The notes under the pieces: model-generated
The model's database searches: none
Told to the model about the DNA's origin: nothing
The model's input: the letters and a program-made list of their open reading frames with translations, nothing else
Translations under genes and position numbers: made by a program
Part shown: positions 12,602-56,359 of the stretch, in pieces
Position numbering within the stretch: position 1 is the first letter of the stretch
How the letters are laid out: each line of letters starts with the position of its first letter
NCBI GenBank assembly: GCA_035524375.1
Contig: DATKOZ010000059.1
Coordinates: 28,822-92,821, forward strand
Origin: Candidatus Binataceae bacterium
Lineage (GTDB): Bacteria > Desulfobacterota > Binatia > Binatales > Binataceae
Length of the DNA: 64,000 bases
Reading direction: 5' to 3'

Positions 12602-12712
12602 CGCAATCTCCAAAATGCTTGATTGCGGCGCCCGCCACGCGCCTTCAAGGTGCGCGCGGGCGCCGGCGCGTGAACGGTTCACGCGCAAGTCAGTTCATGT
12701 TGTCGTGGAAAG

Positions 12713-13054: not shown

Positions 13055-13066
13055 ACCCACCCTTGT

Positions 13067-14263: not shown

Positions 14264-14428
14264 GCGTTCCTCCGATGAAGCGAGATGACGTGACAACCTC
14301 ATTTTGTAGCGCCGTCGCAGCCGGATCGGCAAGCGGCGGATGCCTGCGGCGTCCGATTTCAGCGACGATCGATTGCTGATAGTTTTGGGAATGCTTCGGA
14401 CAGTTGTGTTGATGCGGGTCTTAACGCC

Positions 14429-16405: not shown

Positions 16406-16406
16406 C

Positions 16407-19812: not shown

Positions 19813-19834
19813 TCCGGAACCAAGGAGAACTGCG

Positions 19835-20605
19835 ATGGCGGGAGGATTCGGCTTCATCATAGTCATCGGCATCATCTTCGTGATGAGCGGGCTCAAGGTA
19901 CTCAACGAGTACGAGCGCGGCGTAGTCTTTCGCCTCGGGCGGCTCACCCCGTACCGGGGACCGGGCGTGATCTTCGTAATCCCGATGCTGGAGCGAATCG
20001 TGCGGGTCGATCTGCGGACCGTTACCCTCGATATTCCGCCGCAGGACGTAATCACCAAGGACAACGTGACCGTGAAGGTCAGCGCAGTGCTGTATTTCCG
20101 CGTCGTCGATCCGTCGCGCGCCGTAACCGAAGTGGCAAACTACCTCTTCGCCACGATGCAGATTGCGCAGACGACGCTGCGTTCGGTCGGTGGCCAGACC
20201 GAGCTCGATGAACTGCTAAGCCAGCGCGACAAGCTCAACGCGCGCATTCAGGAGATCGTCGACGCCCAAACCGAGCCGTGGGGCATCAAGGTTACGTTGG
20301 TCGAGATCAAAAACATCGATTTGCCGCAGGACATGCAGCGCGCAATCGCCGCCCAAGCCGAAGCCGAGCGCGAACGGCGCGCCAAGGTCATCGCGGCCGA
20401 AGGCGAATTCCAGGCGGCGCAGCGGCTGGCCGAGGCAGCGGAAATCATGGGCAAAAGCCCAATCACGCTCCAGCTTCGGTATCTGCAAACGCTGGCCGAG
20501 ATCGCGACCGAGCATAATTCGACCACGGTGTTTCCGCTCCCGATCGATTTGATAGAACCATTCCGCGCACTGATTAAGAGTGGTGACCCTGACAAGTCAA
20601 AGTAA
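19835..20605 (+). CDS. SPFH/band-7 (stomatin-like, slipin) protein
   Basis: '[56 protein letters not shown]' plus a coiled-coil '[23 protein letters not shown]'. AAGGAG RBS. This is the classic NfeD partner. Confidence 0.9.
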
Positions 20606-20620
20606 GAAGGAAGACTGAGG

Positions 20621-21226
20621 ATGGGCAGGTTGATTTTGATTCGCCACGCAGAGAGCGAAGGCAATGCGATTCGCGTTTTCACGACGACACCCGAAAGCCT
20701 TGACCTGACCAACCTTGGCCGCCGCCAAGCCGCGCTTGCTGCTGCATCTGTAAAGGAAATGTTCCAGCCGGCGAAGGTCGTCACGAGCACGTTCAAGCGA
20801 GCCCGGGAGACGGGCAGGATCATCGCCGAGGCGATTGGGGTTCCAACTGAAATCGAAGCGGACCTCCGCGAGCGCGATGTTGGCGAACTTGCGGGGCAAT
20901 CCTACGATTCGGTTCTGAACGATCCCGGTTATGAACCGAAGCTATCGTGGCTGTGGCGTCCGAAGGGAGGCGAAAGCCTGGTCGAGGTGATGGGCAGGGC
21001 CGGGCCGGTGCTCGATCGGATCGCAGCGCGTCATCGCGATGAAGAAATCGTCATCGTCAGCCATGGCGGCGTGATGCGTTCGCTGTGGGCGCACGTCACT
21101 GGCAGTTGGGAAGGTGCGCACATCCCGCCCAATTGCGGAATCGTTTTGGTCGAGCATTCGTCCGGCCGCTATCATCCGCCACGTGTGGTCAGCGGCGAAC
21201 CGACCGAAAAGGAAGCCGGCGGCTAA
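20621..21226 (+). CDS. Histidine phosphatase family protein (phosphoglycerate-mutase-like)
   Basis: The 'LILIRHAESEGN' RHG motif and a downstream 'IVSHGGVMR' His motif are both present. Confidence 0.85.
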   Translation: MGRLILIRHAESEGNAIRVFTTTPESLDLTNLGRRQAALAAASVKEMFQPAKVVTSTFKRARETGRIIAEAIGVPTEIEADLRERDVGELAGQSYDSVLNDPGYEPKLSWLWRPKGGESLVEVMGRAGPVLDRIAARHRDEEIVIVSHGGVMRSLWAHVTGSWEGAHIPPNCGIVLVEHSSGRYHPPRVVSGEPTEKEAGG

Positions 21227-22185
21227 TTGCCGGCGATCGGCTTGGTGAGTGCTCGTAGAGTCGCCGGCATCCGATTAGCTGAATCGTCAGCAAGCGGCTG
21301 GGAATAGGAAATCAACCCAGCCTTCGCAGCAATTGCCTGGCCTTGTGCGCCAAGTATCAGCTTTACGAAATCCATCGCGCCGCTTGGATTCGGCGCATCA
21401 TTCGGAATAGTGACACCGTACGCTATCGGCGCGCCCGCGATCGTCGCTCCCCCCGCCTTGACTGTGACCACGGCGTAATCCTTCCGCATCGCGACATCGC
21501 TCAAATTGATTTGCGGCGGCAGGGACAGGAACTTAAGCGGCCCCAGCCGCGCATCGGAGGCATAGCCGAAGTAGTAATCGAGGTCGCCGCTTTCAAGCAG
21601 CGAAATCAGATCGATATTATGCGGACGAATATTCGACAATGGACAACCCGCCGCCAAACGCTTGGCCAGCCCGGGCTTCCGATAAAAGTTCTCGGCCAGC
21701 CGCCACAGGATCAGCGTCCAATATCCCGCCGGATCTCGCGCCGGGTTCGAATGGCCGTAGCGCACGCCGGGGCGGTCCAGAATATCGAACCAATTGTCGG
21801 CACTGATAGCGGCGGCATCCTTCGACTTCTCGGTAAAAAGAATCCCCATCGAGTTTCCGGCAAACACGACCGCCCATCCGCCCAAGCCGGGCCGCGACGC
21901 CGTCAGCAAGCGCCAATCGGCGGTAATCAGGACATCGCATGGACGATGCAGGTCGGTGATTTTACGAATCGCATCCAAACTCCCCGAACCTTCATGCTGC
22001 ACTTCGGATCCCGGATGCGCCGCCTGATATGCCGCCGCCAGATCGCCCGCATAGGCGCGCAGGCTGTCGGCGTGAAAAACGCGGACTACGTTCGAATCGG
22101 CAGCGTGCGCATGCATCGGGCACACGATCGCGGCGATTCCAATCAATAGGACAGCCATGAATCGGCGATGCGATCTCATTTTCAA
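21223..22185 (-). CDS. Periplasmic solute-binding protein, tungstate/molybdate (WtpA/TupA)-like
   Basis: Signal peptide (...IVCPMHAHAADS). 'VFHADSL...EGSGSLDAIRKI', 'ITADW' and 'HSNPARDPAGYWT' resemble oxyanion-binding type-II PBPs. No ABC permease or ATPase gene is adjacent. Confidence 0.6.
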   Translation of the reverse strand: MKMRSHRRFMAVLLIGIAAIVCPMHAHAADSNVVRVFHADSLRAYAGDLAAAYQAAHPGSEVQHEGSGSLDAIRKITDLHRPCDVLITADWRLLTASRPGLGGWAVVFAGNSMGILFTEKSKDAAAISADNWFDILDRPGVRYGHSNPARDPAGYWTLILWRLAENFYRKPGLAKRLAAGCPLSNIRPHNIDLISLLESGDLDYYFGYASDARLGPLKFLSLPPQINLSDVAMRKDYAVVTVKAGGATIAGAPIAYGVTIPNDAPNPSGAMDFVKLILGAQGQAIAAKAGLISYSQPLADDSANRMPATLRALTKPIAGN

Positions 22186-22189
22186 ATGC

Positions 22190-23080
22190 CTAAAACGGAA
22201 GCCGAGCGGAGACGACCCATCGGCTGTTGAAGTTCCGGTAATGCGTTACTGCGACTTCGTCGCCCGCGCCAATCGTCACGCCAAGGCGATTATTTAAAGG
22301 AATGCGTCCGATGATCAAACCGGGAGTCAGGTACAACTGATTGTGGCCCGTTTTTTCGCCATACGAAAACCACGTGTAGTTCGTTTCAAATTCGGGCCAA
22401 AAATATTTGAACAGGCGATACTGAAAGGCGGTATTCCACGCCACCGGCATCCCCAAGCGATCCAATCCGCCGCTTGGAAATGTTACGCCAACGGTGCTCT
22501 GGACGTCGAAGTCCCCGAACCCCTTGCCTGCTGCCAATGTGGGAGTGAAAGTCGCGTGGCCCGCGCCGTTGACATTGGAGCCGGTCGGCACGGTGAATCC
22601 CATGAACGCGGTCACGATGTAATTGCCTTGCTCTTCGTTCGCGGATAGCAGGCGCAGCTTCAGCAGGTACGATAGATCGCCCCAGCCGTCCGTGTTGCGC
22701 GGCGAGCTGCGTTTCAGGTACGGCGGCATCGAGATGATCAGTTCCGTATGCTCCTCCGGGATCAGCTCCAAGCCCTTGCCGCCGTCAAAATTATCGACCG
22801 CGACGCCATTCTTCGATTGAGTGTCCCAGTATTGGTCGTAGCGAACTTCCTGCTCCAGCCGCGGCGTCACCGTGACCAGTGGCGTGATCCAATGCGGCTG
22901 GCTCGCCTTGGCGGCATCGGAGCGAACGAACCAGTTGGAGAAATAATCCTCGATTACCCCCAGAACTCCATAGCCGAACGTGGATGACGGCGGCTGGTCA
23001 TCCGCGAACGCCGGCACCGTGGCCAGAGACAAAGCAGCGCAGATTACCGAAGCCACAAAAGCAATACGGGCAGTTTTCAT
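22190..23080 (-). CDS. Outer-membrane beta-barrel channel (MetA-pathway/'transporter'-type barrel?)
   Basis: Signal peptide MKTARIAFVASVICAALSLATVPAFA, alternating amphipathic strands and a C-terminal 'SARLPF'. It lies 4 nt upstream of the binding-protein gene. Confidence 0.6.
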   Translation of the reverse strand: MKTARIAFVASVICAALSLATVPAFADDQPPSSTFGYGVLGVIEDYFSNWFVRSDAAKASQPHWITPLVTVTPRLEQEVRYDQYWDTQSKNGVAVDNFDGGKGLELIPEEHTELIISMPPYLKRSSPRNTDGWGDLSYLLKLRLLSANEEQGNYIVTAFMGFTVPTGSNVNGAGHATFTPTLAAGKGFGDFDVQSTVGVTFPSGGLDRLGMPVAWNTAFQYRLFKYFWPEFETNYTWFSYGEKTGHNQLYLTPGLIIGRIPLNNRLGVTIGAGDEVAVTHYRNFNSRWVVSARLPF

Positions 23081-23111
23081 AGCCGATGTTTGGTGACATT
23101 ATAAAGGCGAA

Positions 23112-24245
23112 ATGTCAAGCAAACTGGCAGAACATCAAAGCGCGGTCACGCGCGCGCGTATCGCGCGAGGACACAGCCAGACCGAGCTTGCCCGCCGTGC
23201 CGGCATCTCCCGCCAGGCGCTGAACGCAATCGAGGCCGGCGCTTATCAACCCGGCGTGACAGCCGCGATCGCAATTGCGCGCGAACTCGGCCAGTCCGTC
23301 GAAGGACTGTTCAGTGCGCCGGCGCCGGAACGCCTCGATGTAATTGTCGCCGGTTCAACCCCTCCGTCCTCGCTGGCGCCCCGCTCGCGTATTGCTCTGG
23401 CACGGCTGGGCGGGCGCATTGTCGCGATCGCTCAGCCACCGGTTGCGATACAACTTTCGGCTGCAGGCGGAATCGTGGAGAAAACCTCAGGCAGCCACGC
23501 GGTCGTCGACTCGTTCCGGTCGCAGGCCGAGATCGACTCGACGCTGGTAATAGCGGGATGCGATCCAGCCGTCGCGATTTTGGCTGAGTGGTTGGCAAGG
23601 ACCCGAAGCAACGTCCGAGTTGCAGCGCTCGGCGGCTCAAGCCGATCGGCGCTCAAAGCGCTAGCCGGCGGCGCGGTTCACGCCGCCGGAGCGCATCTGC
23701 GAGATCCACGAACCGGCGATTACAACTTGTCGCCCGCACGGCGCGTGCTCGGGCGAACCCGCTGCCTGATGGTGAATTTCGCAAGGTGGGAGCTCGGCCT
23801 GGCGACGCGGCCCGGCAATCCGCTTGGCATCAAAGGATTATCCGATCTCATGCGTCCCCGGATTCGTATCGTTAATCGAGAGCTGGGCTCCGGCGCACGT
23901 ATCGTACTCGATGAAGCGCTTCACGATTCGAATCAGAGACCCCGCAACAGAATTCACGGCTACGAACGCGAAGTCGGCGGGCATCTGGAGGTCGCAGCGG
24001 CAATCGCAGCGGAGCAGGCCGATACCGGCTTGACAATTCGCGTGGCTGCGGAAACCTATGGACTTGGTTTTATTCCCATCCGCCAAGAGCGATATGACAT
24101 TGCGATTGCGGAGCGTGAAATCAATTCGCCGCCGGTAAAGGCAATGCTCGATGCCCTGAATTCTTCACGCTTTGGCCGCGAGGTTGCCCTTCTCTGCGCC
24201 TACGACACCAGCGCGATGGGCAGCGTGCTCGCAAGCGCAGCATAA
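23112..24245 (+). CDS. XRE-type HTH regulator fused to a periplasmic-binding-protein-like sensor domain
   Basis: The N-terminus 'ARGHSQTELARRAGISRQALNAIEAGAYQPGVTAAIAIAREL' is an HTH. The C-terminal ~270 aa are PBP-like ('VIAGCDPAV...LKALAGGAVHAAGAHL'). It is divergent from the barrel and binding-protein pair. Confidence 0.7.
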   Translation: MSSKLAEHQSAVTRARIARGHSQTELARRAGISRQALNAIEAGAYQPGVTAAIAIARELGQSVEGLFSAPAPERLDVIVAGSTPPSSLAPRSRIALARLGGRIVAIAQPPVAIQLSAAGGIVEKTSGSHAVVDSFRSQAEIDSTLVIAGCDPAVAILAEWLARTRSNVRVAALGGSSRSALKALAGGAVHAAGAHLRDPRTGDYNLSPARRVLGRTRCLMVNFARWELGLATRPGNPLGIKGLSDLMRPRIRIVNRELGSGARIVLDEALHDSNQRPRNRIHGYEREVGGHLEVAAAIAAEQADTGLTIRVAAETYGLGFIPIRQERYDIAIAEREINSPPVKAMLDALNSSRFGREVALLCAYDTSAMGSVLASAA

Positions 24246-24254
24246 ATTGAACGC

Positions 24255-25028
24255 TTAATTTCCGCCTGCGGCGGGCATTACGGATTCGAGAAACGACTGC
24301 GAGCGGATTCGACGGTCCAAGATCGATGACATAAACCGCGACAATGCCATCGCCCCGTCCACGCCTGCCGGCTCAGCGCCGGGCGAATCCTCGATCGCAA
24401 CGGCGGCCAGCCGCGCCAGCCGCGCGGCACTAGGCGCGGAAAGCTTGATAGCGCCACTATCTTCCAGCGGACGGCATCGCCCGCACACGATCCCACCACG
24501 CGCAACGATAAAGTAGACCGGCGAATGATCGCCATTGCCAATGCTCGCGCACTGGCGGCATCGGTTGAATTCCAATCCGAAACCGGCCCACCGCAGCAAC
24601 CCAATTTCGAACGCCTGCCGAAGCGCCTGATTCGCCGAGTTGTTTCCGAGAGTGCCAAGCGCCGCCGAGAGTACGCGATAGGCGTCGGCCGCTTCGCCCT
24701 CCTCTGCCGTCAGCGCGTCCGCCAGTTCGAGCATGTAGCTGCCCAGCGCGATCTTCGCGAGGTCATCGTCGATGGTGTGCTGGGCGAGGTCGCCCGCCTC
24801 GGCGCGCGTGATGAAGACAAGTTGTCCGTGCGGACGGCGGCGAAAGTGCAGCATCACATGCGAGAACGGCTCGAGCTTGCGCTCGAAGCGATGGCGTGAG
24901 GCTTTGGCGCCCTTTGCAATCCCGCTCAACTTGCCGGCCCCCGCCGTCAAAAGCGTGACGATTCGATCCGATTCAGCGTAATCGCGAGCGCGAAGCACTA
25001 TTGCTGGAGTCGATTCTTCCGCCGGCAT
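24255..25028 (-). CDS. recO: DNA repair protein RecO
   Basis: 'AIVLRARDYAESDRIVTLLTAGAGKLSGIAKGAKASRHRFERKLEPFSHVML' is the OB fold. A Cys-rich 'CRQCAS...CGRC' zinc motif follows. ATG is at 25028, and the ORF-track start at 25181 overlaps P3. Confidence 0.9.
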   Translation of the reverse strand: MPAEESTPAIVLRARDYAESDRIVTLLTAGAGKLSGIAKGAKASRHRFERKLEPFSHVMLHFRRRPHGQLVFITRAEAGDLAQHTIDDDLAKIALGSYMLELADALTAEEGEAADAYRVLSAALGTLGNNSANQALRQAFEIGLLRWAGFGLEFNRCRQCASIGNGDHSPVYFIVARGGIVCGRCRPLEDSGAIKLSAPSAARLARLAAVAIEDSPGAEPAGVDGAMALSRFMSSILDRRIRSQSFLESVMPAAGGN

Positions 25029-25080
25029 CCCGTCCTCATCCTCGCCGAAAGTTCTATCAGACAGCGGGCCGCGATTTAAG

Positions 25081-26544
25081 TTAGCGGCTTGCGCCGCGAT
25101 GCTCGATGGCAGCCATAAGTGCCCGCGTGCCCGGGTCTTCCGGCGCGAGCTTGGCTGCAAACTCAAGCTCGATCCGAGCACCGCCTACATCGCCCTGTTC
25201 CAGACGCGCCATTCCGAGTCCCTTGTGGCAGGCGGCAAGATCCGGTGCCTCGTCGACACATCGCCCGTACCAGGAAATGTCATCACGCCAGAATGGCTCA
25301 GCGTGAAAAAGTGTCGCCGCGTAAAGTATCGTAAAAGCGGCCGCGCCGACCTGAGCGATTCTCGCGCGCTGCGCGCTTTCCCTTGCGAAACATATCGCCA
25401 GATCGGAAATCATCAGACAGAACCCGAACGATGACAGATAGAGATAACGATCCTGAACGGCGGCTTGAGGGACAATTACATCGAGGCTAAGGATCGGGCC
25501 AATCGCGATCACCATCCACGCGGCGCAGAATGCGTAGAGCCGCCAATGGGGATGATGCCGGAGCAGAATCACGGCCGCGACGCTCAATGCGGCCAAGCCG
25601 ATAAATGGCAGATAAAAGCCGGGCGCGATGACGCTATGCACCAATTGCAGGCGATGCGCCAATCCGGACCGCCATGGAACCGCCAGCAAAATTGCGTAAT
25701 CGGCAATCGCAGACGGGATCGTTAATGCGATAACTTTCGCCGTCAGGTCGTTACCGGGATACGGCTGCAAACTGCCAAAGCCCAAAATCCAAAATCGAAG
25801 CGCGAGGTAGGCTGCCGCCACAAGCGCATAGGGCAATGTCGCGGCGATCGCGCGACTCATTCGCGCCGCGACGGTGGAATCGAAGGCGGCATTCGAAGCA
25901 TTGCCGGAGAAGATAAACGCGTGTGCCGCGATCAATGCCGGAAATGCGATGGCGCTGTCATAGCTCAGGAGCGCGCAAGCAAAGCTGCCGATCGAGATTG
26001 TCAGTCGCCGCGTGCTGCGCTCTCCCGAAAACCAGCCTAGATATGATGCGAATGCGCTCAACTCGAATAAGGCACTGAGCGGTGATCCGATCGCAGCAGG
26101 CCACACCACCGCCTGCGCATGCACCGGCATCAGCGCGAATAGCGCTGCCGCGAAAAACCCGGACCATTCATTTCCGCTCAATTGCGACGCGACCTTGAAG
26201 ACCAACCACACCACGATCAGGTGAAGCAAGATCATCGTTGCATGCCATCCGGCCGGATTGAGTCCGAACAGATGAAAATTCAGCGCGAACCAAACATTCT
26301 GCAGCGGACGATAGTAAGGACCTTGCGGAAGATGAAGCGGGTCGCGAAACCACCAAGAGTCGTTGAGCAGTGATTTCCATATGAACGGCCAGTCACCGAG
26401 ATATTTGTTGTCGACGATTTGGAAGCGATCGTCGAGTACGAAGCCGTTGCCGAGCGACCGGCTGAAGACCAACGCGGTCAGCACAATCAACCGGACCATC
26501 CAAGTGCGGGAGGCACGCTTTGACGTTCCGTCAGGCACAGTCAT
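25081..26544 (-). CDS. Paralog P3: GT-C-like membrane domain with a strongly shortened TPR tail
   Basis: 487 aa. 'NGFVLDDRFQIVDN', 'NDSWWFRDPLHLPQGPYYRP' and 'NFHLFGLNPAGWH' are present. After the membrane domain only ~80 aa remain ('CHKGLGMARLEQGD...GTRALMAAIEHRGASR'). The ATG overlaps the P4 stop (ATGA). Confidence 0.8.
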   Translation of the reverse strand: MTVPDGTSKRASRTWMVRLIVLTALVFSRSLGNGFVLDDRFQIVDNKYLGDWPFIWKSLLNDSWWFRDPLHLPQGPYYRPLQNVWFALNFHLFGLNPAGWHATMILLHLIVVWLVFKVASQLSGNEWSGFFAAALFALMPVHAQAVVWPAAIGSPLSALFELSAFASYLGWFSGERSTRRLTISIGSFACALLSYDSAIAFPALIAAHAFIFSGNASNAAFDSTVAARMSRAIAATLPYALVAAAYLALRFWILGFGSLQPYPGNDLTAKVIALTIPSAIADYAILLAVPWRSGLAHRLQLVHSVIAPGFYLPFIGLAALSVAAVILLRHHPHWRLYAFCAAWMVIAIGPILSLDVIVPQAAVQDRYLYLSSFGFCLMISDLAICFARESAQRARIAQVGAAAFTILYAATLFHAEPFWRDDISWYGRCVDEAPDLAACHKGLGMARLEQGDVGGARIELEFAAKLAPEDPGTRALMAAIEHRGASR

Positions 26545-28373
26545 TTTGCTGTGTCGGAGCGGAGAAGAGCTTCGAGGGCTCTGCTCGCCGCCCGGTCGCT
26601 CGGATTGCGCCGTAAAATTTCCTCAAGCGCGTCCGCCGCCCTCTTGCGATCGCCATGCCTGTACAGAAGTTGCGCGCGCGCCAGCGCGGCTATATTCATG
26701 CCTCCTGGAAGAGCTTCCGCCTGATTGAGGGCGGCTGCAGCACCCGCTTCGTCTCCAGCGGCATCCCGCTCAAGAGCCAATGCGGCGTACTCCTGGGGCT
26801 GGGGATGTGCGGTCCGTTCGATCGATTCGGTCATTGCGCTTGCCGCCGCCTTTCGATCACCAAGCAGCTGGTTTACTCGAATCAGATCGCGGAAAATTTC
26901 CGCATCGGCGTCCGGATCCAGCCCGATAGTGTTCTCAAGCTCATTTCGCGCGCCGGTGAAATCGCCCTGCGCCTCGAGCGCCGCCCCCAACTGCTTGTGG
27001 CAGAACCACATCCCGGGAACCTGCTCGATGCATGCCTTGAATGCCGTTACATCGTCGTGCCAATAGCCCTCCAAGGAAAACGACAATGCCGCATACCAGA
27101 CCGCGGCCGCCGCTGCTGCAGCCCAGATCGAACGCGACTGCCAATCGCCCTGTCGTGCGAAGCGGACCGCGAGGTCGCTCACAATCACGCAGAATCCGAA
27201 CGATGCAAAATAAAGATACGGATCCTGAATCGCACCCGCAGCGTAGAGTCCATTCAAATTGAGCGCCGGGCCAAGCGGGATCAGCACCCACGCAGCGCAA
27301 AATAAATACAGCTTGCGGCGTGGATCGCGCCGGAAAAGAAAAATCATTGCGACGCCGGCCAAGATTAAGCTGAAGACTGGAACCAGCAAATCCGGCGACG
27401 CGATGCTGTTCACGATGTCCAACCGATGCATCCCGGTCCGCCACGGCATCACCAGCATCGACAGGTAGATCCAGATCATCTCCGGGATCGTCGCTGCCAC
27501 CTGGAGCGCCGATAGCGAATGATGATTTAGCGGGTTCGGCCGCGTGATGAACCCCAAAACGCAAAATCGCATCGTCAGGTATACCGCCGCCTCGGTCGCG
27601 AATGGACAGGCAGCAACCGCGGCAGCTCTTACCCGATCGGCGACTGACTCAGCATTGCTTTCCCCTGGACACTGCTGCGGGAAAATCAGCGCGTAAGTCG
27701 CGATTAAGACAGGAAATGCAACCGCCATCTCATGACTGAGCAGCGCGCACGCGTACAGCACCATCGCAAATGCGAACCGCGATGCACTGCGCTCGCCTGC
27801 TGCACGCCGGGCAAATATCTCGAATGCACCGAGTTGGCATCCGGTCGCGAGAAGATGCTGGCTCGCCGAGGGCCAGACTACGGTCTGGACATGGACCGGC
27901 ATCAGCGCAAACAGGGCGGCTGAAAGGAGCCCCGTCCACATATTTTCGGAAAGAAGCTTTGCGACTCGAAAGACCTGGCACACCACAATTAAGTGCAGCG
28001 CGATCGACACGACGTGCCATCCGACGGGATTGGCGCCGAACAGATGGAAATTTATCGCCAGCCATACTCCTTGCAGCGGCCGATAGTATGATCCTACCGG
28101 CAAATGATTGGGATTTTCGAACCACTGGGCATCGTTGACGAATGATTTCCAAAAGTACGACCATTCCCCAATGAAACGATTGCTCGCGATTTGAAAGTGA
28201 TCGTCAAAGATGAACTCATTTCCCAGCGAGCGCACGTAAACGATCGCGGTGACGATTAGTATCCCACCGAGCCATATGAGATGAGCGGAATTATCGGTGA
28301 GCCGCCTCGGCAGGATGCCATAAGCTTCCCGATTACCTGGCGGCTTGACGCCACAGTTGTCCTGCTCCTGCAT
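26541..28373 (-). CDS. Paralog P4: GT-C-like membrane domain plus TPR domain lacking the last repeats
   Basis: 610 aa. 'NEFIFDDHFQIASN', 'NDAQWFENPNHLPVGSYYRP' and 'NFHLFGANPVGWH' are present. The TPR region ends at '...ILRRNPSDRAASRALEALLRSDTAK', about 70 aa short of the full-length members. The junction with P5 is TAG-C-ATG. Confidence 0.8.
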   Translation of the reverse strand: MQEQDNCGVKPPGNREAYGILPRRLTDNSAHLIWLGGILIVTAIVYVRSLGNEFIFDDHFQIASNRFIGEWSYFWKSFVNDAQWFENPNHLPVGSYYRPLQGVWLAINFHLFGANPVGWHVVSIALHLIVVCQVFRVAKLLSENMWTGLLSAALFALMPVHVQTVVWPSASQHLLATGCQLGAFEIFARRAAGERSASRFAFAMVLYACALLSHEMAVAFPVLIATYALIFPQQCPGESNAESVADRVRAAAVAACPFATEAAVYLTMRFCVLGFITRPNPLNHHSLSALQVAATIPEMIWIYLSMLVMPWRTGMHRLDIVNSIASPDLLVPVFSLILAGVAMIFLFRRDPRRKLYLFCAAWVLIPLGPALNLNGLYAAGAIQDPYLYFASFGFCVIVSDLAVRFARQGDWQSRSIWAAAAAAAVWYAALSFSLEGYWHDDVTAFKACIEQVPGMWFCHKQLGAALEAQGDFTGARNELENTIGLDPDADAEIFRDLIRVNQLLGDRKAAASAMTESIERTAHPQPQEYAALALERDAAGDEAGAAAALNQAEALPGGMNIAALARAQLLYRHGDRKRAADALEEILRRNPSDRAASRALEALLRSDTAK

Positions 28374-28374
28374 G

Positions 28375-30405
28375 CTAATGCGGCGCTCCGCGCTCTTCGA
28401 TCGCGGCCATCAAGGCCCGTGCGACGCGATTATCCGGTGCAGCCGCGATGGCAAGCGCGCATTCGTCATGAGCCTCTCGATCACGCCCCAAGTTGTGGAG
28501 CGCCATCGCGATTCGATAGTGAATCCCCGCCTGATTTGGAGCTAATTCCTCTACTCGGCGAAATGCGTCGAGGGCTTCATCGTATCTGTGTTCGGCTGAC
28601 AGTATGGTCGCAAGCGCGCTCAGCGCTTGCGCATCATTTGGCGCGCGGCCTAGTAATTCGTGTAGTCCGTTTTCCGCGCCCTTGCTATCGCCATGCATAA
28701 AAAGAATCTGTGCGCGAACTCGCGTGGCGATGTTGGCGCCGCCGGGAATCGCGTTGGCTTGCATCAAAGCTCCTTCCGCACCTTGCGTGTCACCAGCCGC
28801 GTCGGCCACGACCGCCAGATCGGCATACGCCTCCGCCGGCGCGTGGCCGAGCAGCTTAATTCCATCGGATATCTCGCGCTCCGCCGCGTGCGCATCGCCA
28901 AGATGCCCATCCGCCAAGCCCAGATTATACATACTGTGGCCGTCGCTGGCGTCGAGCGATATCGCACGCTGAAATTCAGTTCGCGCACTGGGATAGTCCC
29001 CGCGTTCGCCGAGCGCGGCCCCCAAATGATTGTGCCAGACCGCGACCTCGGGAGCTTCCGCAACGCACTTGGAAAACAGCGTGAAGTCATCGTGCCAGAA
29101 GCGCTGCACCGAGTAGAGCGACGCCGCATAGGTTGCCGCAATTCCAGCCGATCCGATCGCCATCGCAATGGCTGCCGTCGAATTTCGATGTGCGACCGTA
29201 ACGATCATGCCGGCTGCAATCACACAAAACCCGAATGACGGAAGATACAGATATCGATCTTGGATCAAACTCCCGGCGGGGAGGCCATGCAAATTGAGTG
29301 TCGGTGCAAGGCCGATCAAAATCCACGCGCCGCAATAGAGATAAAGATCGCGCAGTGCGGCATGTCGGATCGCGACGTAAACAGCGCCAACCACCCCGCC
29401 AATTGCGAGCAGTGGAACATAGAAATTAGTCGATGCAATGCTGTCAACGCGCGCCAGCAGATGCGCAGGGGCGGCCGTCCACGGCACGAGGAGAAGCATC
29501 AAATACGCCGTAATCGCAGAAGGCACTGTCAGGATCGATTCCGCCACGGTCAGTTCATTGTTGAAGCTTCCCTGAGTGGCAAAACCCAGCACCAACATTC
29601 GAATGACGAGGTAGGCGGCGGCTTCCGCTGCATAAGGCCACGCCGCGACGATCGCAAAGCGCAATCTATCGCTCAGCGGCGTATCGCTGATGGCTGATTT
29701 CCGACCGCTGGTATTTGTTACCCGCTGACGTGCAAATATGAAGGCATGCGCTGCTATGAGCGCGGGAAATATCAGCGCGCCCTCGTAGCTCAATAGAGCG
29801 CCGCCGCAGAGCGCAAGAGAAACTAACCGCCACCATTGGCTGCGATCGTCCCCGGCCAAAGGCAACGAACGTTCTCCGCTCTGGAATACGTAGAGGTAAA
29901 ATTCAAAAGCTCCTAGTTCCAACGCTGCGGACAGTTGCGCCCCGAATGCCCACGCAACCGCCTCCGCATGGATCGGCGTGAGCCCATACAGCGCAGCGGC
30001 AAGCAAGCCAATCAGCCAGTCTTCAGAAAGTATCGCAGCGACGCGGTAAGTTAGCCATACGACAATCAAATGCAGCAAAATCGCCGCTGCATGCCAGCCG
30101 GCGGGATTCGCCCCGAACAAGTGAAAGTTGATCCACAGCCAGATACTCGAAAGCGGCCGGTAATACGCGCTTTGAGGCAAGTGTCCCGGGTCGCGAAACC
30201 ACCAGTCATCGCTAACCAATGATTTAAGAATGAACGTCCAATCGTTCAGGTAATGATTATTGGCGATCGTCTCCGCTTGATCGAAGACAAAACTATTTCG
30301 GAGCTCGCGGCTATAGATCAGAGCGGTGCAAGCCAGGATTGCAGCCAAGCACCCGCGCGGCAACGCTGATTGCGGATTCCGATCACGAGCGCCCGTGGAT
30401 CTCAA
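28375..30405 (-). CDS. Paralog P5: GT-C-like membrane domain plus TPR domain (motif FDQ instead of FDD)
   Basis: 676 aa. 'NSFVFDQAETIANN', 'SDDWWFRDPGHLPQSAYYRP' and 'NFHLFGANPAGWH' are present, with a full TPR tail ('HYRIAMALHNLGRDREAHDECALAIAA'). The only in-frame start is TTG at 30403-30405, overlapping the ylxR stop (TTGA). Confidence 0.75.
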   Translation of the reverse strand: MRSTGARDRNPQSALPRGCLAAILACTALIYSRELRNSFVFDQAETIANNHYLNDWTFILKSLVSDDWWFRDPGHLPQSAYYRPLSSIWLWINFHLFGANPAGWHAAAILLHLIVVWLTYRVAAILSEDWLIGLLAAALYGLTPIHAEAVAWAFGAQLSAALELGAFEFYLYVFQSGERSLPLAGDDRSQWWRLVSLALCGGALLSYEGALIFPALIAAHAFIFARQRVTNTSGRKSAISDTPLSDRLRFAIVAAWPYAAEAAAYLVIRMLVLGFATQGSFNNELTVAESILTVPSAITAYLMLLLVPWTAAPAHLLARVDSIASTNFYVPLLAIGGVVGAVYVAIRHAALRDLYLYCGAWILIGLAPTLNLHGLPAGSLIQDRYLYLPSFGFCVIAAGMIVTVAHRNSTAAIAMAIGSAGIAATYAASLYSVQRFWHDDFTLFSKCVAEAPEVAVWHNHLGAALGERGDYPSARTEFQRAISLDASDGHSMYNLGLADGHLGDAHAAEREISDGIKLLGHAPAEAYADLAVVADAAGDTQGAEGALMQANAIPGGANIATRVRAQILFMHGDSKGAENGLHELLGRAPNDAQALSALATILSAEHRYDEALDAFRRVEELAPNQAGIHYRIAMALHNLGRDREAHDECALAIAAAPDNRVARALMAAIEERGAPH

Positions 30406-30680
30406 AGTCCCTTGGCGTCTCTGATCGCAAGCGCGATTTCAAGCCGCTCGCTATGCTCGATTCCCCTGCGCAGCGAGCGAAACTGCTTCACTCGGGAGGC
30501 TACAAACCGCTTGATGCAATCGTCGTCGCGATGCAGATACGCGCCGCGTCCGGGACGGTCACCCGAGTAATCCAGGACCAGTTTTCCGTCCGCGACCGCA
30601 AGTCGCACCATTGCCGACTTCGCGGCGCGCTTCATGCAGCCAATACAGGTGCGTTCCGGCAGCCTATTTTTCTCCGCCAT
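30402..30680 (-). CDS. ylxR: YlxR/RnpM-family RNA-binding protein (DUF448)
   Basis: 'ERTCIGCMKRAAKSAMVRLAV...GRGAYLH' is the DUF448 signature. It sits in the canonical position right after nusA, which it overlaps by 17 nt. Confidence 0.9.
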   Translation of the reverse strand: MAEKNRLPERTCIGCMKRAAKSAMVRLAVADGKLVLDYSGDRPGRGAYLHRDDDCIKRFVASRVKQFRSLRRGIEHSERLEIALAIRDAKGL

Positions 30681-32034
30681 CTTGCGGCGCCGGAGTGGAC
30701 GCCGAAGGCGCGTCCTCAGCGGCGGACTCGGCGGATGCCGCTTGCACCGCCGCGGCGGCCTCGGATGCCGCCTGCGCCTTGGCTTCGGCCTGCGCCTTCT
30801 TCAATGCGACATGCTCGCGCGCCGCATTGATGATTTGCTTGGCACGCTCGGGGCTGATTCCCTCGACGTCGAAAGCAGCCTCGTCCGCCTCGGCCAACTG
30901 CTCGGCCGATCGGAATCCCCATTGGTACAATAGCTCCGCATTGATATCGCCGATGGCTGGAATTGCGTTGAGCGATGCACGCGCGGACCGGGCCTCTTCT
31001 TCGGCCTCGGCCTCGCTGCGAACGTCGAGCTTCCAGTTGGTCAGGCGATGTGCCAGACGGACGTTTTGGCCGCGCTTGCCGATCGCAAGCGAAAGTTGAT
31101 CATCGGGAACGATCACTTCCATCGCGTGTTCGTCTTCGTCGATCACCACCTTGGAAACCTTCGCCGGAGCAAGGGCGCGACATACCAATTCCGCTTGGTC
31201 GTCAGTCCACGGCACGATATCGATCTTTTCGCCGCGCAACTCCTGCACCACCGCCTGAACTCGGGTGCCTTTCATTCCGACGCAGGCGCCGACCGGATCG
31301 ACATCGGCATCTTTCGAATAAACGGCAACTTTCGCGCGGCCGCCGGGCTCACGCGCGCATTGCCGAATCTCGACGATGCCTTCGTAAATTTCCGGCACCT
31401 CCTGCTCGAACAGCTTCATTAGAAAGTCGTTTGCCGTTCGCGACAAGATGATCGCCAGTCCCTTTTCCGAAAGCTCCACATCCAGGATTAGCGCACGGAT
31501 CCGATCGCCCTGACGATACCGCTCGTGCGGGATCTGCTCCTTCTCCGGTAAAATCGCCTCGGTCCGGCCCAAATTAACTATCATGTTCTTGCGCTCGAAC
31601 CGCTGTACAATCCCCGAAACCACTTCGCTCTTGCGGTCCTTGAACTCGTTGTAAATCTGCTTTCGCTCGGCATCGCGGATGTGCTGGATGAGATTCTGCT
31701 TGGCCGCTTGAGCGGCGATGCGGCCCATCGTGGCGGTGTCGAGCTTGATTAGGATTTCATCGCCGGAGGCCGCATCCGGGTCATATTTCGCACGCGCGGT
31801 GGCAACGTCGACCTCCGCGGCCGGATTGGCAACGGTTTCGACCACTGTCTTGATCTCGAACAACTCGATTTCGCCCAACTCCGGATTGAATCGCGATTCA
31901 ATATTGCGGTCGGCGCCAAAAGTCCGGCGCGCCGCGGAGTGCATCATCTCCTCCACCGCGCTTACCACAATGGTTTTGTCGATGCCCTTTTCCTTGGAGA
32001 CCTGTTCGATCACCCGGTTCAGATCGATTTGCAT
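30664..32034 (-). CDS. nusA: Transcription termination/antitermination factor NusA
   Basis: 'MQIDLNRVIEQVSKEKGIDKTIVVSAVEEMMHSAARR', an S1 domain ('GIVQRFERKNMIVNLGRTEAILPEKEQIPHERYRQGDRIRA') and KH domains ('VGACVGMKGTRVQAVVQELRGEKIDIV') are present. The C-terminal tail is Ala/Glu-rich. Confidence 0.95.
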   Translation of the reverse strand: MQIDLNRVIEQVSKEKGIDKTIVVSAVEEMMHSAARRTFGADRNIESRFNPELGEIELFEIKTVVETVANPAAEVDVATARAKYDPDAASGDEILIKLDTATMGRIAAQAAKQNLIQHIRDAERKQIYNEFKDRKSEVVSGIVQRFERKNMIVNLGRTEAILPEKEQIPHERYRQGDRIRALILDVELSEKGLAIILSRTANDFLMKLFEQEVPEIYEGIVEIRQCAREPGGRAKVAVYSKDADVDPVGACVGMKGTRVQAVVQELRGEKIDIVPWTDDQAELVCRALAPAKVSKVVIDEDEHAMEVIVPDDQLSLAIGKRGQNVRLAHRLTNWKLDVRSEAEAEEEARSARASLNAIPAIGDINAELLYQWGFRSAEQLAEADEAAFDVEGISPERAKQIINAAREHVALKKAQAEAKAQAASEAAAAVQAASAESAAEDAPSASTPAPQDGGEK

Positions 32035-32089
32035 ATCGCCTCATGCAGCGCCGGCGTCCGCGGCCAAATGGCCACCCGACGCCGCCGGT

Positions 32090-32581
32090 TCAGTTGCCAA
32101 AATCGTACTCGTAATTCGCGTCCTTCATCTCGCCAAACCCGATCGCAAACCGCTGCCGGGTGGCCTCATCTTCCAGTTCAATACCTTCGCCGCCCGCCGA
32201 AATCAGGCGACCGACGTAAGACTTCCGCCCGTCGCGCGCTTCCCTGGTCCGCACCCGAACCCGCTTGCCAACCACCGCCTCAAAATGCTCCAGTTTGCGC
32301 AGCGGCCGGTTCAGACCCGGCGATGCGACTTCCAGTGTGTAGCGGCCCTCGATGGGATCGTACACGTCGAGCAAATCGCCCAGCTTCGGGCTGAGCAACT
32401 CCAAATCGCTCAGCGAAATTCCGCCGCCCGGCTTGTCCACCAGGATTCGCAACAGTGAATTCCGCGTTCCCTGATGGTAGTCAACCGCCACCAACTCGTA
32501 GCCATCACGCTCGATATGCGGCTCGAGCAGCGCAGCCACCTTCTCGGCGACCGGATGAGGCGTCAGCGCCATCTTCGCCAT
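32090..32581 (-). CDS. rimP: Ribosome maturation factor RimP
   Basis: 'GYELVAVDYHQGTRNSLLRILVDKPGGGISLSDLELLSPKLGDLLD...YTLEVASPGLNRPL' is typical RimP, placed upstream of nusA. ATG is at 32581, and the ORF-track start at 32923 is an extension that overlaps P6. Confidence 0.9.
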   Translation of the reverse strand: MAKMALTPHPVAEKVAALLEPHIERDGYELVAVDYHQGTRNSLLRILVDKPGGGISLSDLELLSPKLGDLLDVYDPIEGRYTLEVASPGLNRPLRKLEHFEAVVGKRVRVRTREARDGRKSYVGRLISAGGEGIELEDEATRQRFAIGFGEMKDANYEYDFGN

Positions 32582-32643
32582 TGGCCTTTTCCTTATGCCG
32601 AAGCCCACGCCGCGATTCCGCCAAGCCTGCCCACGGCACCAAC

Positions 32644-32667
32644 AAAAAAGTGGGCGCGCGCCCACTT
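32644..32667 (-). terminator. Rho-independent terminator between P6 and rimP
   Basis: Perfect GC-rich palindrome gtgggcgc|gcgcccac (32650-32665), preceded on the plus strand by aaaaaa (32644-32649). On the minus strand this is a hairpin followed by UUUUUU. It lies about 95 nt after the P6 stop. Confidence 0.7.
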
Positions 32668-32759
32668 CTACGCAGCAAGATATCACCCCGGCTGACCCAT
32701 CGGCAAGGCGCCAATATTCATGGGAAAATCTCGTTTCGCTTTCTGCCGGACGCGCGGGC

Positions 32760-34199
32760 TTACAGCAGGGAATCGCCCCCCAGCCGGTCGAGTCGAAAAT
32801 GGTCCATTGCGGAAGCGCTTTTCCAGTAAGCCTGCACGGAAAAAAGCATCGCCGCATAGCCGATCGCCACTGCGACCGCGCCAATTCGAATAATCTTCGC
32901 CCGCATCGGCCCACCGCGCGCAAAGTTGACCGCCAGATCCGCAGCCATCAGGCAAAATCCCATCGATGGCAGATAGAGAAATCGATCGTGAACCGTCGGC
33001 CCGCCTGCGATCGCGTTCAGGTTGAGCGCCGGAGCAATCGTGATCACAAACCAAAGAATACAATACAGATAAAGCCATCGATGACGGCTGAAACCAATGA
33101 CTGCTGCAAGCACTGCGAGAGACCCGCACAGTGCTGCAATTGTGAAATAGAACCGCGGTTGCGCGGAACTAATTACATATTCGATTTGAGGATGCGCCGG
33201 CCCGGCCTTCCATTGCATCACGAGTAGCTTCAGATATCCGACGATTGCCAATGGAATCGTCAGAGCGACTTGGTTTGATGTCGGGTATGGCGGCGGCGAT
33301 TTTTCGAATACGAATCCGAATATCCACATCCGCAGGAAAAGATAGAGAACTACTAAAATCCCATAAGGCCAGGTCTCTGCAAACGCGGCAGCCAAACGCC
33401 TAAAGACAGACGATGCGACCCCCGCTTCAGGTCCTTCACGCTCTCCAATGGAGTTACTCCGGGAGTCCGTCTCGATCTCGACTTGACTGGGGAAAATGAG
33501 CGCATGAGCACCAATCAGGACAGGAAATCCTACCGCGCTTTCATAACTGAGCATGGCGCATGCGAAAAGCCCAAGTGACAGAATCTTCGCGCGCCGCCGT
33601 AAATAGAGATCGAATGCACCCAATGCGAAGGCAGCGCTGATCGGCGGCGCGAATGCGAATACCACTGCCTCGGCATGCGCAGGCATTAGCGCAAACAGCA
33701 TCGCCGATAAAATGCCCGCATCACGATCGCCCGAAAGAACCGTGCAAACTCTAAAAACGAGCCACACTACTATCAGGTTCACCGCAATCATCGCGGCGTG
33801 CCATCCGGCAGGATCGATTCCGAACAGATGGTAGTTAATCCAAAGCCAAAGACTCAGGATTGGTCGATAATACGAACTGACTGGAACATGTTGCGGGTTG
33901 TCGAACCACCAGTCGTCGTTGACGAGCGCTTTTGGAAGGTAGAACCAGCTGGCGAGATATCGATTGAAGACGATCGATCCAAGCTGATCGCCGATGAACT
34001 GGTTGCCGATGCAATGTAGGTAAACTATTGCGGTTGTGGCCAGAATCACGGCCATCCGCGCTCCCGCGGCTGAATCGCCGTCCCCGAGCTTCGCGAATAT
34101 TTTGCCACTCCGCAGACCGTTCTTAGTAGCTCCATGACGGCCAAATAAAGACGATTCGCGGCTCCGATGCTGCCCGGCGGCTGACGATGGACGACGCAT
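32760..34199 (-). CDS. Paralog P6: GT-C-like membrane domain only (no TPR, motif GDQ instead of DD)
   Basis: 479 aa. 'NQFIGDQLGSIVFN', 'NDDWWFDNPQHVPVSSYYRP', 'NYHLFGIDPAGWH' and 'DRFLYLPS' are present. The protein stops at '...YWKSASAMDHFRLDRLGGDSLL', exactly where the TPR domain starts in the other paralogs. The start is ATG 34199 or ATG 34055. Confidence 0.7.
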   Translation of the reverse strand: MRRPSSAAGQHRSRESSLFGRHGATKNGLRSGKIFAKLGDGDSAAGARMAVILATTAIVYLHCIGNQFIGDQLGSIVFNRYLASWFYLPKALVNDDWWFDNPQHVPVSSYYRPILSLWLWINYHLFGIDPAGWHAAMIAVNLIVVWLVFRVCTVLSGDRDAGILSAMLFALMPAHAEAVVFAFAPPISAAFALGAFDLYLRRRAKILSLGLFACAMLSYESAVGFPVLIGAHALIFPSQVEIETDSRSNSIGEREGPEAGVASSVFRRLAAAFAETWPYGILVVLYLFLRMWIFGFVFEKSPPPYPTSNQVALTIPLAIVGYLKLLVMQWKAGPAHPQIEYVISSAQPRFYFTIAALCGSLAVLAAVIGFSRHRWLYLYCILWFVITIAPALNLNAIAGGPTVHDRFLYLPSMGFCLMAADLAVNFARGGPMRAKIIRIGAVAVAIGYAAMLFSVQAYWKSASAMDHFRLDRLGGDSLL

Positions 34200-34351
34200 G
34201 GCTGGATACGACCGCGGCCCGATAGTTAAACAGGCCGGTTGCCAATTTCAACTCACCCGCAAGACTCGCACCGCCCTTGAACCGTGCGTGGAAGCCGCGG
34301 CGCACAGCCTATATGATCTCTCTCAATTCGGACTCGCCGCCGGATAATGCG

Positions 34352-35638
34352 ATGTCAGACTTCCTCGGACCAGAATCTCCCGTAATCGGCTTCCTGCTCG
34401 CCATCGCGATCGGATTTCTGATCGGTCGAACTCGCGAGCCAGGGGAAGGCCGGCCGCCACGGCCGGGACTGCGTGACTTTGTCATTATCGCCCTGGTCGG
34501 CGCCATCGCGGGCCATCTCGACATCACTGCCATTACCGTCGCTTTGGTGATTACAGTCACCGCCACAATGCTCATAATGCGCGCGCAGCATCCGGAGCGC
34601 AGCGGAATCACGACCGAGTTGGCGGGACTGGCGACCTTTATCTTGGCGGCGCTTTCGATGACGCGCGATCGTCAATTCGCCGCGGCGCTTGGGATCGTCC
34701 TGGCGATGGTACTGGCGCGGCGGGATGAAATCCGCCGGATCGTGCGCGAAGAAATTTCTGACGAGGAATACATCGACACGCTTTCGTTCCTCGGACTGAT
34801 CTTCATCATCTACCCATTGCTGCCGCAGGGAGGTTACGGCCCGTTCGAATTCTTCGAGCCGCGCCGGATATGGCTGTTTGTAATCCTTGTATCCGGCGTA
34901 TCTTTCGTCGGTTATTTCGTCGCCAAATTCACCGGGCCGGAGCGGGGAGCGATGCTGACGGCGGTAGTCGGTGCGGTTGCGTCAACTACCGCATACACGG
35001 GCGGCATTTCCCAAGCAGTGGCTGAAGCACCGGAGATTGCAATACCAGCGGCGCGCAACGTACTAATTGCAAATTCGATTTTGTTCCCTCGGATGCTCCT
35101 TATCATCGCGCCCATCTCACCCGGTCTCGCGATCGCGGCTGTACCCGCATTTTCAGCCATGACGATTTCTGGATTTGCTGCGGCGTGGGTTGTCGCTCGC
35201 GCACCGCAACAAAGCGGCGTGACGGTGGCCGCTTCCACCTTTCGCAATCCATTCACACTCGGCCCGGCACTAAAGTTTGGCGCTGTTTTCACAGCCGTCG
35301 TATTCCTCTCGCGAGCCGCAGTCAGGTACTTGGGCTTCGGTGGGCAGATGGCGGTGTCAGCGGCAAGCGGTCTGGTCGATGTGGATGCAATATCGCTCGC
35401 GCTGGCGGGCTTCGTCCAATCCGGGGTCAGCACCGCGCAGGCAGCGGCCGCTGGGATGACACTGGCAGCGGGAGTAAATGCAATTTTCAAGTCCGCCATG
35501 GCGCGCAGCAGCGGCCAATCGGCTTTCTACTTGCGGATTTTTGCTGGATTCGTCATCATGTTCGCAGCGGGAGCGATGGTGTTGGCGTTTGCCGATTCCG
35601 CGCGTTTCGCTGCGGTCGTGGGTGGGCTCCAACGGTAG
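34352..35638 (+). CDS. MgtC/SapB-like plus DUF4010 integral membrane protein
   Basis: 'FLLAIAIGFLIGRTRE' is the N-terminal motif of a ~12-TM protein with a DUF4010-like second half. I prefer ATG 34352. Confidence 0.7.
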   Translation: MSDFLGPESPVIGFLLAIAIGFLIGRTREPGEGRPPRPGLRDFVIIALVGAIAGHLDITAITVALVITVTATMLIMRAQHPERSGITTELAGLATFILAALSMTRDRQFAAALGIVLAMVLARRDEIRRIVREEISDEEYIDTLSFLGLIFIIYPLLPQGGYGPFEFFEPRRIWLFVILVSGVSFVGYFVAKFTGPERGAMLTAVVGAVASTTAYTGGISQAVAEAPEIAIPAARNVLIANSILFPRMLLIIAPISPGLAIAAVPAFSAMTISGFAAAWVVARAPQQSGVTVAASTFRNPFTLGPALKFGAVFTAVVFLSRAAVRYLGFGGQMAVSAASGLVDVDAISLALAGFVQSGVSTAQAAAAGMTLAAGVNAIFKSAMARSSGQSAFYLRIFAGFVIMFAAGAMVLAFADSARFAAVVGGLQR

Positions 35639-39456: not shown

Positions 39457-39500
39457 GCAAAACTTATCGTGATTCTTTGCCGGATTTCGCAAAACTTATC
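39457..39500. promoter_or_regulatory. 12-bp direct repeat pair in the divergent GH57 / Sel1 intergenic region
   Basis: gcaaaacttatc occurs at 39457-39468 and again at 39489-39500, 32 bp start to start (about 3 helical turns). It lies between the GH57 start (39400, minus) and the Sel1 start (39586, plus). Confidence 0.35.
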
Positions 39501-39585
39501 AAGCGGCGGATGCCGCATTACCCGGCGTCTGTTCACAGCTTGATGCACTTTGACGGCCCGGCGCACATGGCTATGCTGTCCAGCA

Positions 39586-40275: not shown

Positions 40276-40426
40276 TCTGCCCTGACATACCACCCGCGCT
40301 GCCGGGTAAAGCAGCCCGGATTTCCGGGCGCGCCGATAGCTGATAATTTCATAGACGCCACCGATGCGCATGTTCACGCGGATTTCATATTGATCCGATG
40401 GACTTTTACCTCCGCGCCGGCGGTTG

Positions 40427-42496: not shown

Positions 42497-42497
42497 G

Positions 42498-44552: not shown

Positions 44553-44553
44553 G

Positions 44554-46596: not shown

Positions 46597-46597
46597 A

Positions 46598-56262: not shown

Positions 56263-56331
56263 AGTGTACCAGTACCTAACATATTGAAATAAGAGCCGAA
56301 AGCCCCCGCGCCATCGGATGATTCCGTCGCT

Positions 56332-56359
56332 TTCGCGAACTCGCAACCGCTGGTAAAAT
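56332..56359 (+). promoter_or_regulatory. Candidate sigma70-like promoter of the ABC-F gene
   Basis: TTCGCG (56332-56337), a 16-nt spacer, then TAAAAT (56354-56359), 16 nt before ATG 56376. The -35 box is weak. Confidence 0.25.

Follow-up and report, generated by a model that had tools for sequence, protein, structure and literature searches.

A rearranged nusA operon in an uncultured Binataceae bacterium, with tandem glycosyltransferase-like genes and recO behind ylxR

We have analysed a 64-kb stretch of metagenomic DNA (hereafter the window; contig DATKOZ010000059.1) from an uncultured wetland bacterium of the family Binataceae (Binatota), in which the nusA gene cluster departs from its usual order. 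On the minus strand, rimP, nusA and ylxR are followed by three tandem genes, P5, P4 and P3, which encode predicted membrane glycosyltransferases, and then by recO, and infB is missing from its usual place. The adjacency of ylxR and P5 is genuine and not an artefact of assembly. We consider it probable that rearrangements broke the ancestral cluster at the 3' end of ylxR and joined P5-P4-P3-recO to it, and that the rimP promoter now serves all seven genes as one transcription unit. The junction is a lineage-specific oddity of gene order, a rearranged nusA operon, and does not represent a new kind of system.

Gene order around nusA

Gene identities were assigned by Pfam and NCBIfam models. The features of the locus are as follows, with protein lengths in amino acids (aa), other lengths in nucleotides (nt) and tetratricopeptide repeats abbreviated as TPR.

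32090-32581, minus strand: rimP, with Pfam RimP_N and RimP C-terminal domains and NCBIfam RimP models
30664-32034, minus strand: nusA (TIGR01953, 411 bits)
30402-30680, minus strand: ylxR (rnpM-like), 92 aa (PF04296)
30402-30405, minus strand: the TTGA junction, in which the ylxR stop TGA (30404-30402) overlaps the first possible P5 start TTG (30405-30403), by direct reading
28375-30405, minus strand: P5, 676 aa (AlphaFold2 model, structural matches to GT-C enzymes, TPR Pfam matches)
26541-28373, minus strand: P4, 610 aa (PMT_2 at 27.2 bits with a cut-off of 26.1, TPR_14; aligned with its paralogs)
25081-26544, minus strand: P3, 487 aa (no family match; aligned with its paralogs)
25029-25080, minus strand: the 52 nt that separate P3 from recO, in which GAGGA, similar to a Shine-Dalgarno sequence, precedes the recO ATG
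24255-25028, minus strand: recO, 257 aa from the ATG at 25028 (TIGR00613)

These assignments, together with tblastn searches, confirmed the order rimP-nusA-ylxR-P5-P4-P3-recO on one strand without infB, as an initial annotation made from the sequence alone had read it. RimP is 50-78% identical to its relatives across the Binataceae and 35-43% identical to those of more distant Binatia, and for NusA the identity to proteins of uncultured Binataceae (Candidatus Binatus and its relatives, Binatota) reaches 94%. The gene rimP directly precedes nusA on one strand, across a gap of 55 nt, and ylxR follows nusA directly, its start (30680) overlapping the nusA stop by 17 nt. Compared with YlxR of the Binatus group, that of the window is shortened at its C-terminus by about 5-8 residues. 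The recO start at 25028 agrees with the RecO proteins of relatives, which align from residue 1, and with the gene call on an independent contig (257 aa; locus L081, described below). At its other end recO is convergent with a gene for an HTH-PBP regulator (ending at 24245), from which it is separated by 9 nt.

A comparison of synteny around nusA, which the initial annotation had proposed, established rimP-nusA-ylxR-infB as the norm of the lineage. Among the 70 loci of Binataceae and other Binatia with at least 1.5 kb after nusA, 68 carry infB directly after nusA-ylxR, followed by a 95-aa open reading frame (ORF), rbfA, truB, rpsO and pnp; in one of them (L034), the infB ORF matches TIGR00487 with 832 bits. 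At the nucleotide level, homology of the window to these relatives ends at about 30420-30432, in the last codons of ylxR, and it is at the 3' end of ylxR that the window departs from the canonical order. Neither a P gene nor recO was found within 10 kb of nusA in any of the relatives' 80 loci. Conversely, tblastn with the relatives' proteins detected none of infB, rbfA, truB, rpsO and pnp anywhere in the 64 kb. Because infB is essential and is not in the window, it must lie elsewhere in the genome, and to this extent the relocation of infB that had been proposed is upheld.

The break is less exceptional, and so less surprising, than had first been implied, since infB is likewise missing behind nusA or ylxR in three other Binataceae species. 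Two of these have a convergent gene right after nusA and neither ylxR nor infB there (L021, 10001-11700; L064, 10001-11700). The third (L003, 3640-4197) has no infB start behind ylxR, and 75 nt beyond ylxR lies the end of a convergent ORF; its YlxR is the one most like that of the window, and both have the shortened C-terminus. The window resembles these three loci in having lost the nusA-infB linkage by rearrangement, but in those loci the operon simply ends, whereas the window gains same-strand genes with overlapping stop and start codons. The transcription unit of the window has therefore probably been extended and not truncated. Linkage of nusA and infB is also absent in Helicobacter and Campylobacter.

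The physical reality of the ylxR-P5 junction was established from independent assemblies. A Logan contig of SRR8879131 (9742 bp, locus L081), assembled independently, encodes the exact YlxR of the window and carries nusA'-ylxR-P5-P4-P3-recO with three further window genes. It starts inside nusA at window position 31306, shows zero differences from the window over 28400-31306, and has a depth of 12.6 as compared with 11.9 on the adjoining rimP-side contig. In addition, a 151-nt unitig from a different sample (X2) covers 30320-30470 with zero mismatches, and no loose ends were reported on assembly sequences at the junction. The interval 30380-30420, in which the initial annotation had placed a possible assembly artefact, is thus spanned by an independent contig of uniform depth and by a cross-sample unitig.

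A separate observation concerns the central part of nusA (31220-31500), which is so conserved among co-occurring Binataceae that depth rises there from about 12x to more than 400x and Logan contigs break. In metagenome-assembled genomes (MAGs) of Binataceae, an assembly is likely to switch between genomes in this part of nusA.

Two ancestral neighbourhoods at the junction

What follows ylxR in the window belongs, in the relatives, to a different part of the genome. Using RecO as an anchor, we found 45 metagenome recO loci (L082-L126) that share a conserved neighbourhood. With recO taken as plus, the relatives have genes for a TonB-dependent receptor (minus), a family III CoA-transferase (minus) and a MoxR-type AAA ATPase (plus), and then recO (plus). 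In some relatives recO is followed by an HTH-PBP regulator (minus), a 296-aa gene (plus) and a solute-binding protein (plus), and the neighbourhood closes with a histidine phosphatase (minus), an SPFH/Band 7 protein (minus) and NfeD (minus). None of the 45 loci contains a P gene.

In the window, the receptor and CoA-transferase genes (10220-14332) still adjoin the recO block, but the segment from recO to NfeD (18457-25028) is inverted relative to them, and moxR, which stands ahead of recO in the relatives, is absent from the window. P genes stand at both ends of the inverted segment, with P1-P2 (14429-18443, plus strand) at the NfeD-side joint and P3-P5 at the joint between recO and ylxR; P2 and P3, which directly flank the segment, are inverted copies. 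On the other side of nusA synteny is intact and comprises rimP, a MgtC/DUF4010 gene, acetyl-CoA synthetase and GH57 genes, and then MaoC and SDR genes.

As everything past ylxR derives from the other ancestral block, the joint between ylxR and P5 is a rearrangement breakpoint between two ancestral synteny blocks, and both flanks of the P5-P4-P3 array (ylxR to P5, P3 to recO) are novel adjacencies. At least two inversion-type events are needed. The initial annotation had pictured a three-gene cassette spliced into an otherwise intact operon; this picture does not hold, since the genes downstream of ylxR belong to a different, inverted block.

A search for repeats around the P arrays recovered homology between paralogs alone, at no more than 85% over short stretches, the longest being P2 against P3 (343 nt, 72%). 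No flanking direct or inverted repeats were found around the arrays, and no integrase or transposase was found in the window. Recent homologous recombination between P genes was considered and rejected, the paralogs being too diverged (36-51% identity).

Other origins of the adjacency were weighed against this evidence. A mobile P cassette might have inserted between ylxR and infB, leaving infB-rbfA-truB just beyond it; P10, and a Sel1-repeat gene with P6-P9, do look like clean insertions elsewhere in the window. Such a simple insertion is nevertheless very unlikely at ylxR, where infB, rbfA, truB, rpsO and pnp are all missing from the 30 kb downstream, the array runs on into recO and an inverted block from another conserved neighbourhood, and neither flanking repeats nor a gene for an integrase or transposase accompanies it. 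It is exceedingly improbable that two genomes were joined at or near ylxR as an assembly chimera. The source is indeed a metagenome contig, and its nusA stretch is common to many co-occurring Binataceae (depth up to 432x at 31220-31360), but the independent Logan contig runs from 31306 through recO and beyond without differences and at matching depth, and the exact unitig from another sample and the lack of loose ends point the same way.

Proposed transcription and translation across the junction

Two features upstream of rimP bear on expression of the operon:

32677-32706, minus strand: sigma-70-like promoter of the rimP operon, with -35 TTGCCG (32706-32701), an 18-nt spacer ending in TGn, and -10 TATCTT (32682-32677)
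32640-32669, minus strand: leader hairpin followed by a U-run (AAGUGGGCGCGCGCCCACUUUUUU), the strongest terminator-like site in 23000-35000

The position and sequence of this promoter are conserved in nearly all Binataceae relatives. A promoter scan with default settings overlooked it and gave no match at all on the minus strand, and the scan was replaced by a relaxed scan calibrated on the rimP promoter (background of 0.30 per kb per strand). Over the minus strand from 32800 to 24200, the relaxed scan returned the rimP promoter as its single match, although about 2.6 chance matches are expected downstream of that promoter.

The hairpin begins about 10-15 nt after the promoter and has the form GUGGGC-loop-GCCCAC-UUUUUU. 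Its motif is present in 63 of 77 rimP upstream sequences (76 Binatia loci and the window), mostly 55-80 nt before rimP. In the relatives the upstream gene is divergent, and the hairpin therefore belongs to the rimP leader and is not a 3' terminator of that gene. The stem is invariant, which makes covariation uninformative, and a comparison of 24000-35000 with Rfam (E ≤ 1) gave no match. In E. coli and B. subtilis, NusA controls its own operon at leader terminators; the hairpin resembles these in form and is a candidate leader attenuator or intrinsic terminator that may serve NusA autoregulation. Between the leader and the recO stop (24255), neither an internal promoter nor a convincing terminator was found; the other terminator-like sites are weak, intragenic and without a good U-run, and such sites are not enriched over shuffled sequence (21 versus 14.6 ± 3.7).

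The initial annotation had described the gene junctions as TTGA between ylxR and P5, TAG-C-ATG between P5 and P4, ATGA between P4 and P3, and a 52-nt gap before recO, and all of these proved exact on direct reading. It was mistaken, however, in taking the TTG within TTGA as the only available start of P5, as in-frame TTG codons also occur at 30363 and 30348, 42 nt and 57 nt downstream of the TTG at 30405. Gene calls for P5 differ accordingly, with 662 aa on the source contig (equivalent to the TTG at 30363) and 676 aa on the L081 contig, and ylxR and P5 are separated by a 4-nt overlap (TTG 30405) or a 38-nt gap (TTG 30363). Both spacings are typical of gene pairs within the same operon. Neither Shine-Dalgarno energies nor the N-terminal tails of the family (0-72 residues, median about 24) separate the P5 starts, and residues 1-9 of P5 are disordered in the structure model, which gives no decision between them. 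Duplex energies with the anti-Shine-Dalgarno sequence are -1.7 kcal/mol for ylxR, +0.1 kcal/mol for P3 and -9.3 kcal/mol for recO; the absence of a Shine-Dalgarno sequence at the overlapping ylxR and P3 starts fits coupled translation, and recO, behind its spacer, has a strong one. From this geometry, the seven genes plausibly form one transcription unit of about 8.4 kb, from the rimP promoter through recO.

The following course of events and mode of expression are hypothesized. Two or more inversion-type events would have cut the ancestral cluster, rimP-nusA-ylxR-infB-rbfA-truB-rpsO-pnp, at the 3' end of ylxR, and the cut cluster would have been joined to a block consisting of three tandem TMTC-like GT-C/TPR paralogs (P5, P4 and P3) and recO. 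The rimP promoter (32706-32677) would drive the resulting seven-gene unit and the leader hairpin (32669-32640) would gate it. Distal genes would be translated by coupling or re-initiation at the TTGA, ATGA and 1-nt junctions, with translation of P5 damped by its TTG start, and infB and the genes that follow it would be expressed at another locus from a promoter of their own.

Several points weigh against this reconstruction. The order and number of the events cannot be reconstructed because there is no close relative, the best nucleotide identity being about 76-82% and no P5 ortholog exceeding 49%. The start of P5 is ambiguous between the TTG codons at 30405, 30363 and 30348. Promoters of Binatota are uncharacterised, and weak or alternative-sigma promoters, or Rho-dependent termination, would escape the scan. 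Searches of RNA runs with the 7.6-kb stretch and with 500 nt over the junction gave no match, and no infB locus of the source genome was found in the 64 kb covered by tblastn.

A rival reading is an adjacency that is real but uncoupled, in which transcription ends at or before the junction and P5-P4-P3, possibly with recO, is expressed from a hidden promoter in the 3' part of nusA or in ylxR. Promoters and terminators also occur within the nusA-infB operon of E. coli, promoter detection was insensitive here (even the conserved rimP promoter escaped the default scan), and the expression levels suited to abundant core factors and to scarce membrane enzymes usually differ. Weak hairpins also occur inside P5, for example at 30092-30070. 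We nonetheless regard uncoupled expression as unlikely. The relaxed scan found no promoter-like site between 32677 and 24200, although chance alone would be expected to supply some, the intragenic hairpins lack a good U-run and are no commoner than in shuffled sequence, and the spacing of ylxR and P5, on either start, is that of genes within one operon. Expression of the seven genes as a single unit from the rimP promoter remains the explanation that we favour.

With the canonical nusA-infB operon (metY-rimP-nusA-infB-rbfA-truB-rpsO-pnp in E. coli; rimP-nusA-ylxR/rnpM-ylxQ-infB-ylxP-rbfA in B. subtilis), the window shares the order rimP-nusA-ylxR, overlapping or short junctions, and a promoter and leader hairpin before rimP. 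It differs in that three GT-C/TPR genes and recO follow ylxR in place of infB-rbfA-truB-rpsO-pnp. The nusA-infB cluster is among the most conserved of bacterial gene orders, and a natural case in which it has been cut after ylxR and extended is useful in several respects. It shows that the linkage of IF2 and NusA is dispensable in a free-living lineage of soil and wetland, and it provides a test case for whether attenuation in the nusA operon leader tolerates foreign downstream cargo. It also calls for caution in annotation pipelines and in synteny-based marker logic for Binatota MAGs.

The P protein family and other features of the window

Ten P paralogs, 36-51% identical to each other, are encoded at four sites in the window:

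14429-18443, plus strand: P paralog site (P1-P2)
25081-30405, minus strand: P paralog site (P3-P5)
32760-34199, minus strand: P paralog site (P10)
40424-48553, plus strand: P paralog site (P6-P9)

The AlphaFold2 model of P5 (pLDDT 92.3, pTM 0.91) shows a membrane domain of helices over roughly the first 440 residues, with TPR helices behind it (440-673). When the full-length P5 model and a full-length family profile were compared with the PDB, they returned TPR proteins only; residues 1-440 were therefore modelled alone for a Foldseek structure search. The top 20 matches of this domain are all GT-C enzymes, with probabilities of 0.66-1.00 (at least 0.99 for 18 of the 20) and query-normalised TM-scores of 0.30-0.53. 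They include AglB, STT3, ArnT, Pmt4, DPY19, AftA, ALG12, Pmt1/2, AftD and EmbB, the best being 7e9s (E = 6e-5), 8b6l_I (TM 0.53), 5f15/5ezm, 9i5k (TM 0.53) and 7zli. A profile search of the PDB found no sequence relatives of the P N-terminal domain. The P5 N-terminal domain finds its best structural matches among oligosaccharyltransferases of the AglB/STT3/PglB type, ArnT, Pmt1/2/4 and DPY19. It differs from the solved GT-C enzymes in its low identity to them (10-16%) and in its soluble domain, which in P5 consists of TPRs and in those enzymes of oligosaccharyltransferase, MIR or ArnT periplasmic domains.

Two motifs recur in the N-terminal domain. An FVxDD motif lies just after the first transmembrane helix, with the first Asp (D42) present in 59 of 60 members and the second in 52 of 60; in P5 the pair reads DQ. 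It agrees with the acidic motif (DxD, DD or DE) that GT-C glycosyltransferases carry in their first extracytoplasmic loop. A YRP motif (Y82-R83-P84) is invariant in the 60 family sequences. For the eukaryotic TMTC O-mannosyltransferases, motifs M1 (DD) and M2 (SHKSYRP) have been described (PMC7801869). The P family resembles TMTC1-4 in its N-terminal multi-helix GT-C domain and C-terminal TPRs, and FVxDD and YRP correspond to M1 and M2, respectively. A GT-C-fold domain followed by a TPR domain is also the architecture of bacterial "GT39/PMT_2 + TPR" proteins. Unlike TMTC1-4, P proteins occur in tandem arrays, P5 has the DQ variant, P3 and P10 lack a TPR domain, and the Pfam evidence is slight: no P protein matches DUF1736, the TM7-TM8 loop, at E ≤ 0.01, and PMT_2 is marginal (P4 just above the cut-off; P1 below it, at 22.6 bits; P3 and P5 without a match). 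Because DUF1736 is undetected and PMT_2 marginal, we do not file the P proteins as members of the TMTC family. They are best described as TMTC-like membrane enzymes of predicted GT-C fold, usually with C-terminal TPRs, and as predicted glycosyltransferases. Homologs carry the label "protein O-mannosyl-transferase" at JGI and "tetratricopeptide repeat protein" or "glycosyltransferase family 39" at NCBI.

Individual copies vary in architecture. TPR matches in Pfam are strong at the C-terminus of P5 and are also found in P4, which is 42% identical to P5 and combines the GT-C-like domain with a shorter TPR region. P3 has the GT-C-like domain and almost no TPR, only a short remnant; its identity to the other P proteins is 40-51%, highest with P2 (51%), with which it forms the most similar pair. 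Among 5.8 billion proteins, no homolog of P5 exceeded 49% identity.

The family is abundant in Binataceae and forms tight tandem arrays in many other genomes of that family. In one of them (L128), the array begins with a copy whose start lies 17 nt inside the 3' end of an unrelated gene; close packing behind unrelated genes is thus a habit of the P family. A broader proposal is that the P family spreads in Binataceae by way of intergenic sites and the 3' ends of unrelated operons, that one array has come under the NusA-gated rimP leader, so that the making of surface glycosylation enzymes would follow the growth-rate control of transcription and translation factors, and that dispersed arrays mark or promote breakpoints, as P genes stand at both joints of the inverted recO block; as a whole we regard this as improbable. 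The analysis does point to a TMTC-like glycosyltransferase family that is large and strongly amplified in Binataceae and is probably of greater biological interest. We see this family and the conserved rimP leader hairpin as more promising leads than the rearranged operon.

The two remaining P sites have the appearance of clean insertions. P10 (32760-34199) separates rimP from the MgtC/DUF4010 gene, two genes that stand about 180 nt apart in relatives. A Sel1-repeat gene and P6-P9 (about 39500-48560) occupy the interval from the GH57 gene to the MaoC gene, which in relatives measures about 220 nt. Neither segment is flanked by repeats or mobility genes.

Two further features of the window are unconnected with the nusA operon. 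At 52426-56346 on the minus strand, a 1306-aa ORF carries TPR repeats and ends in a PIN domain as described for the "TPR-GreAB-C-PIN system" (PF20698). Gene calls on the matching Logan contig (locus L127) place a gene pair for a HigB-like toxin and an HTH_3 antitoxin at about 1-2400, beside a 185-aa gene (1716-2273).

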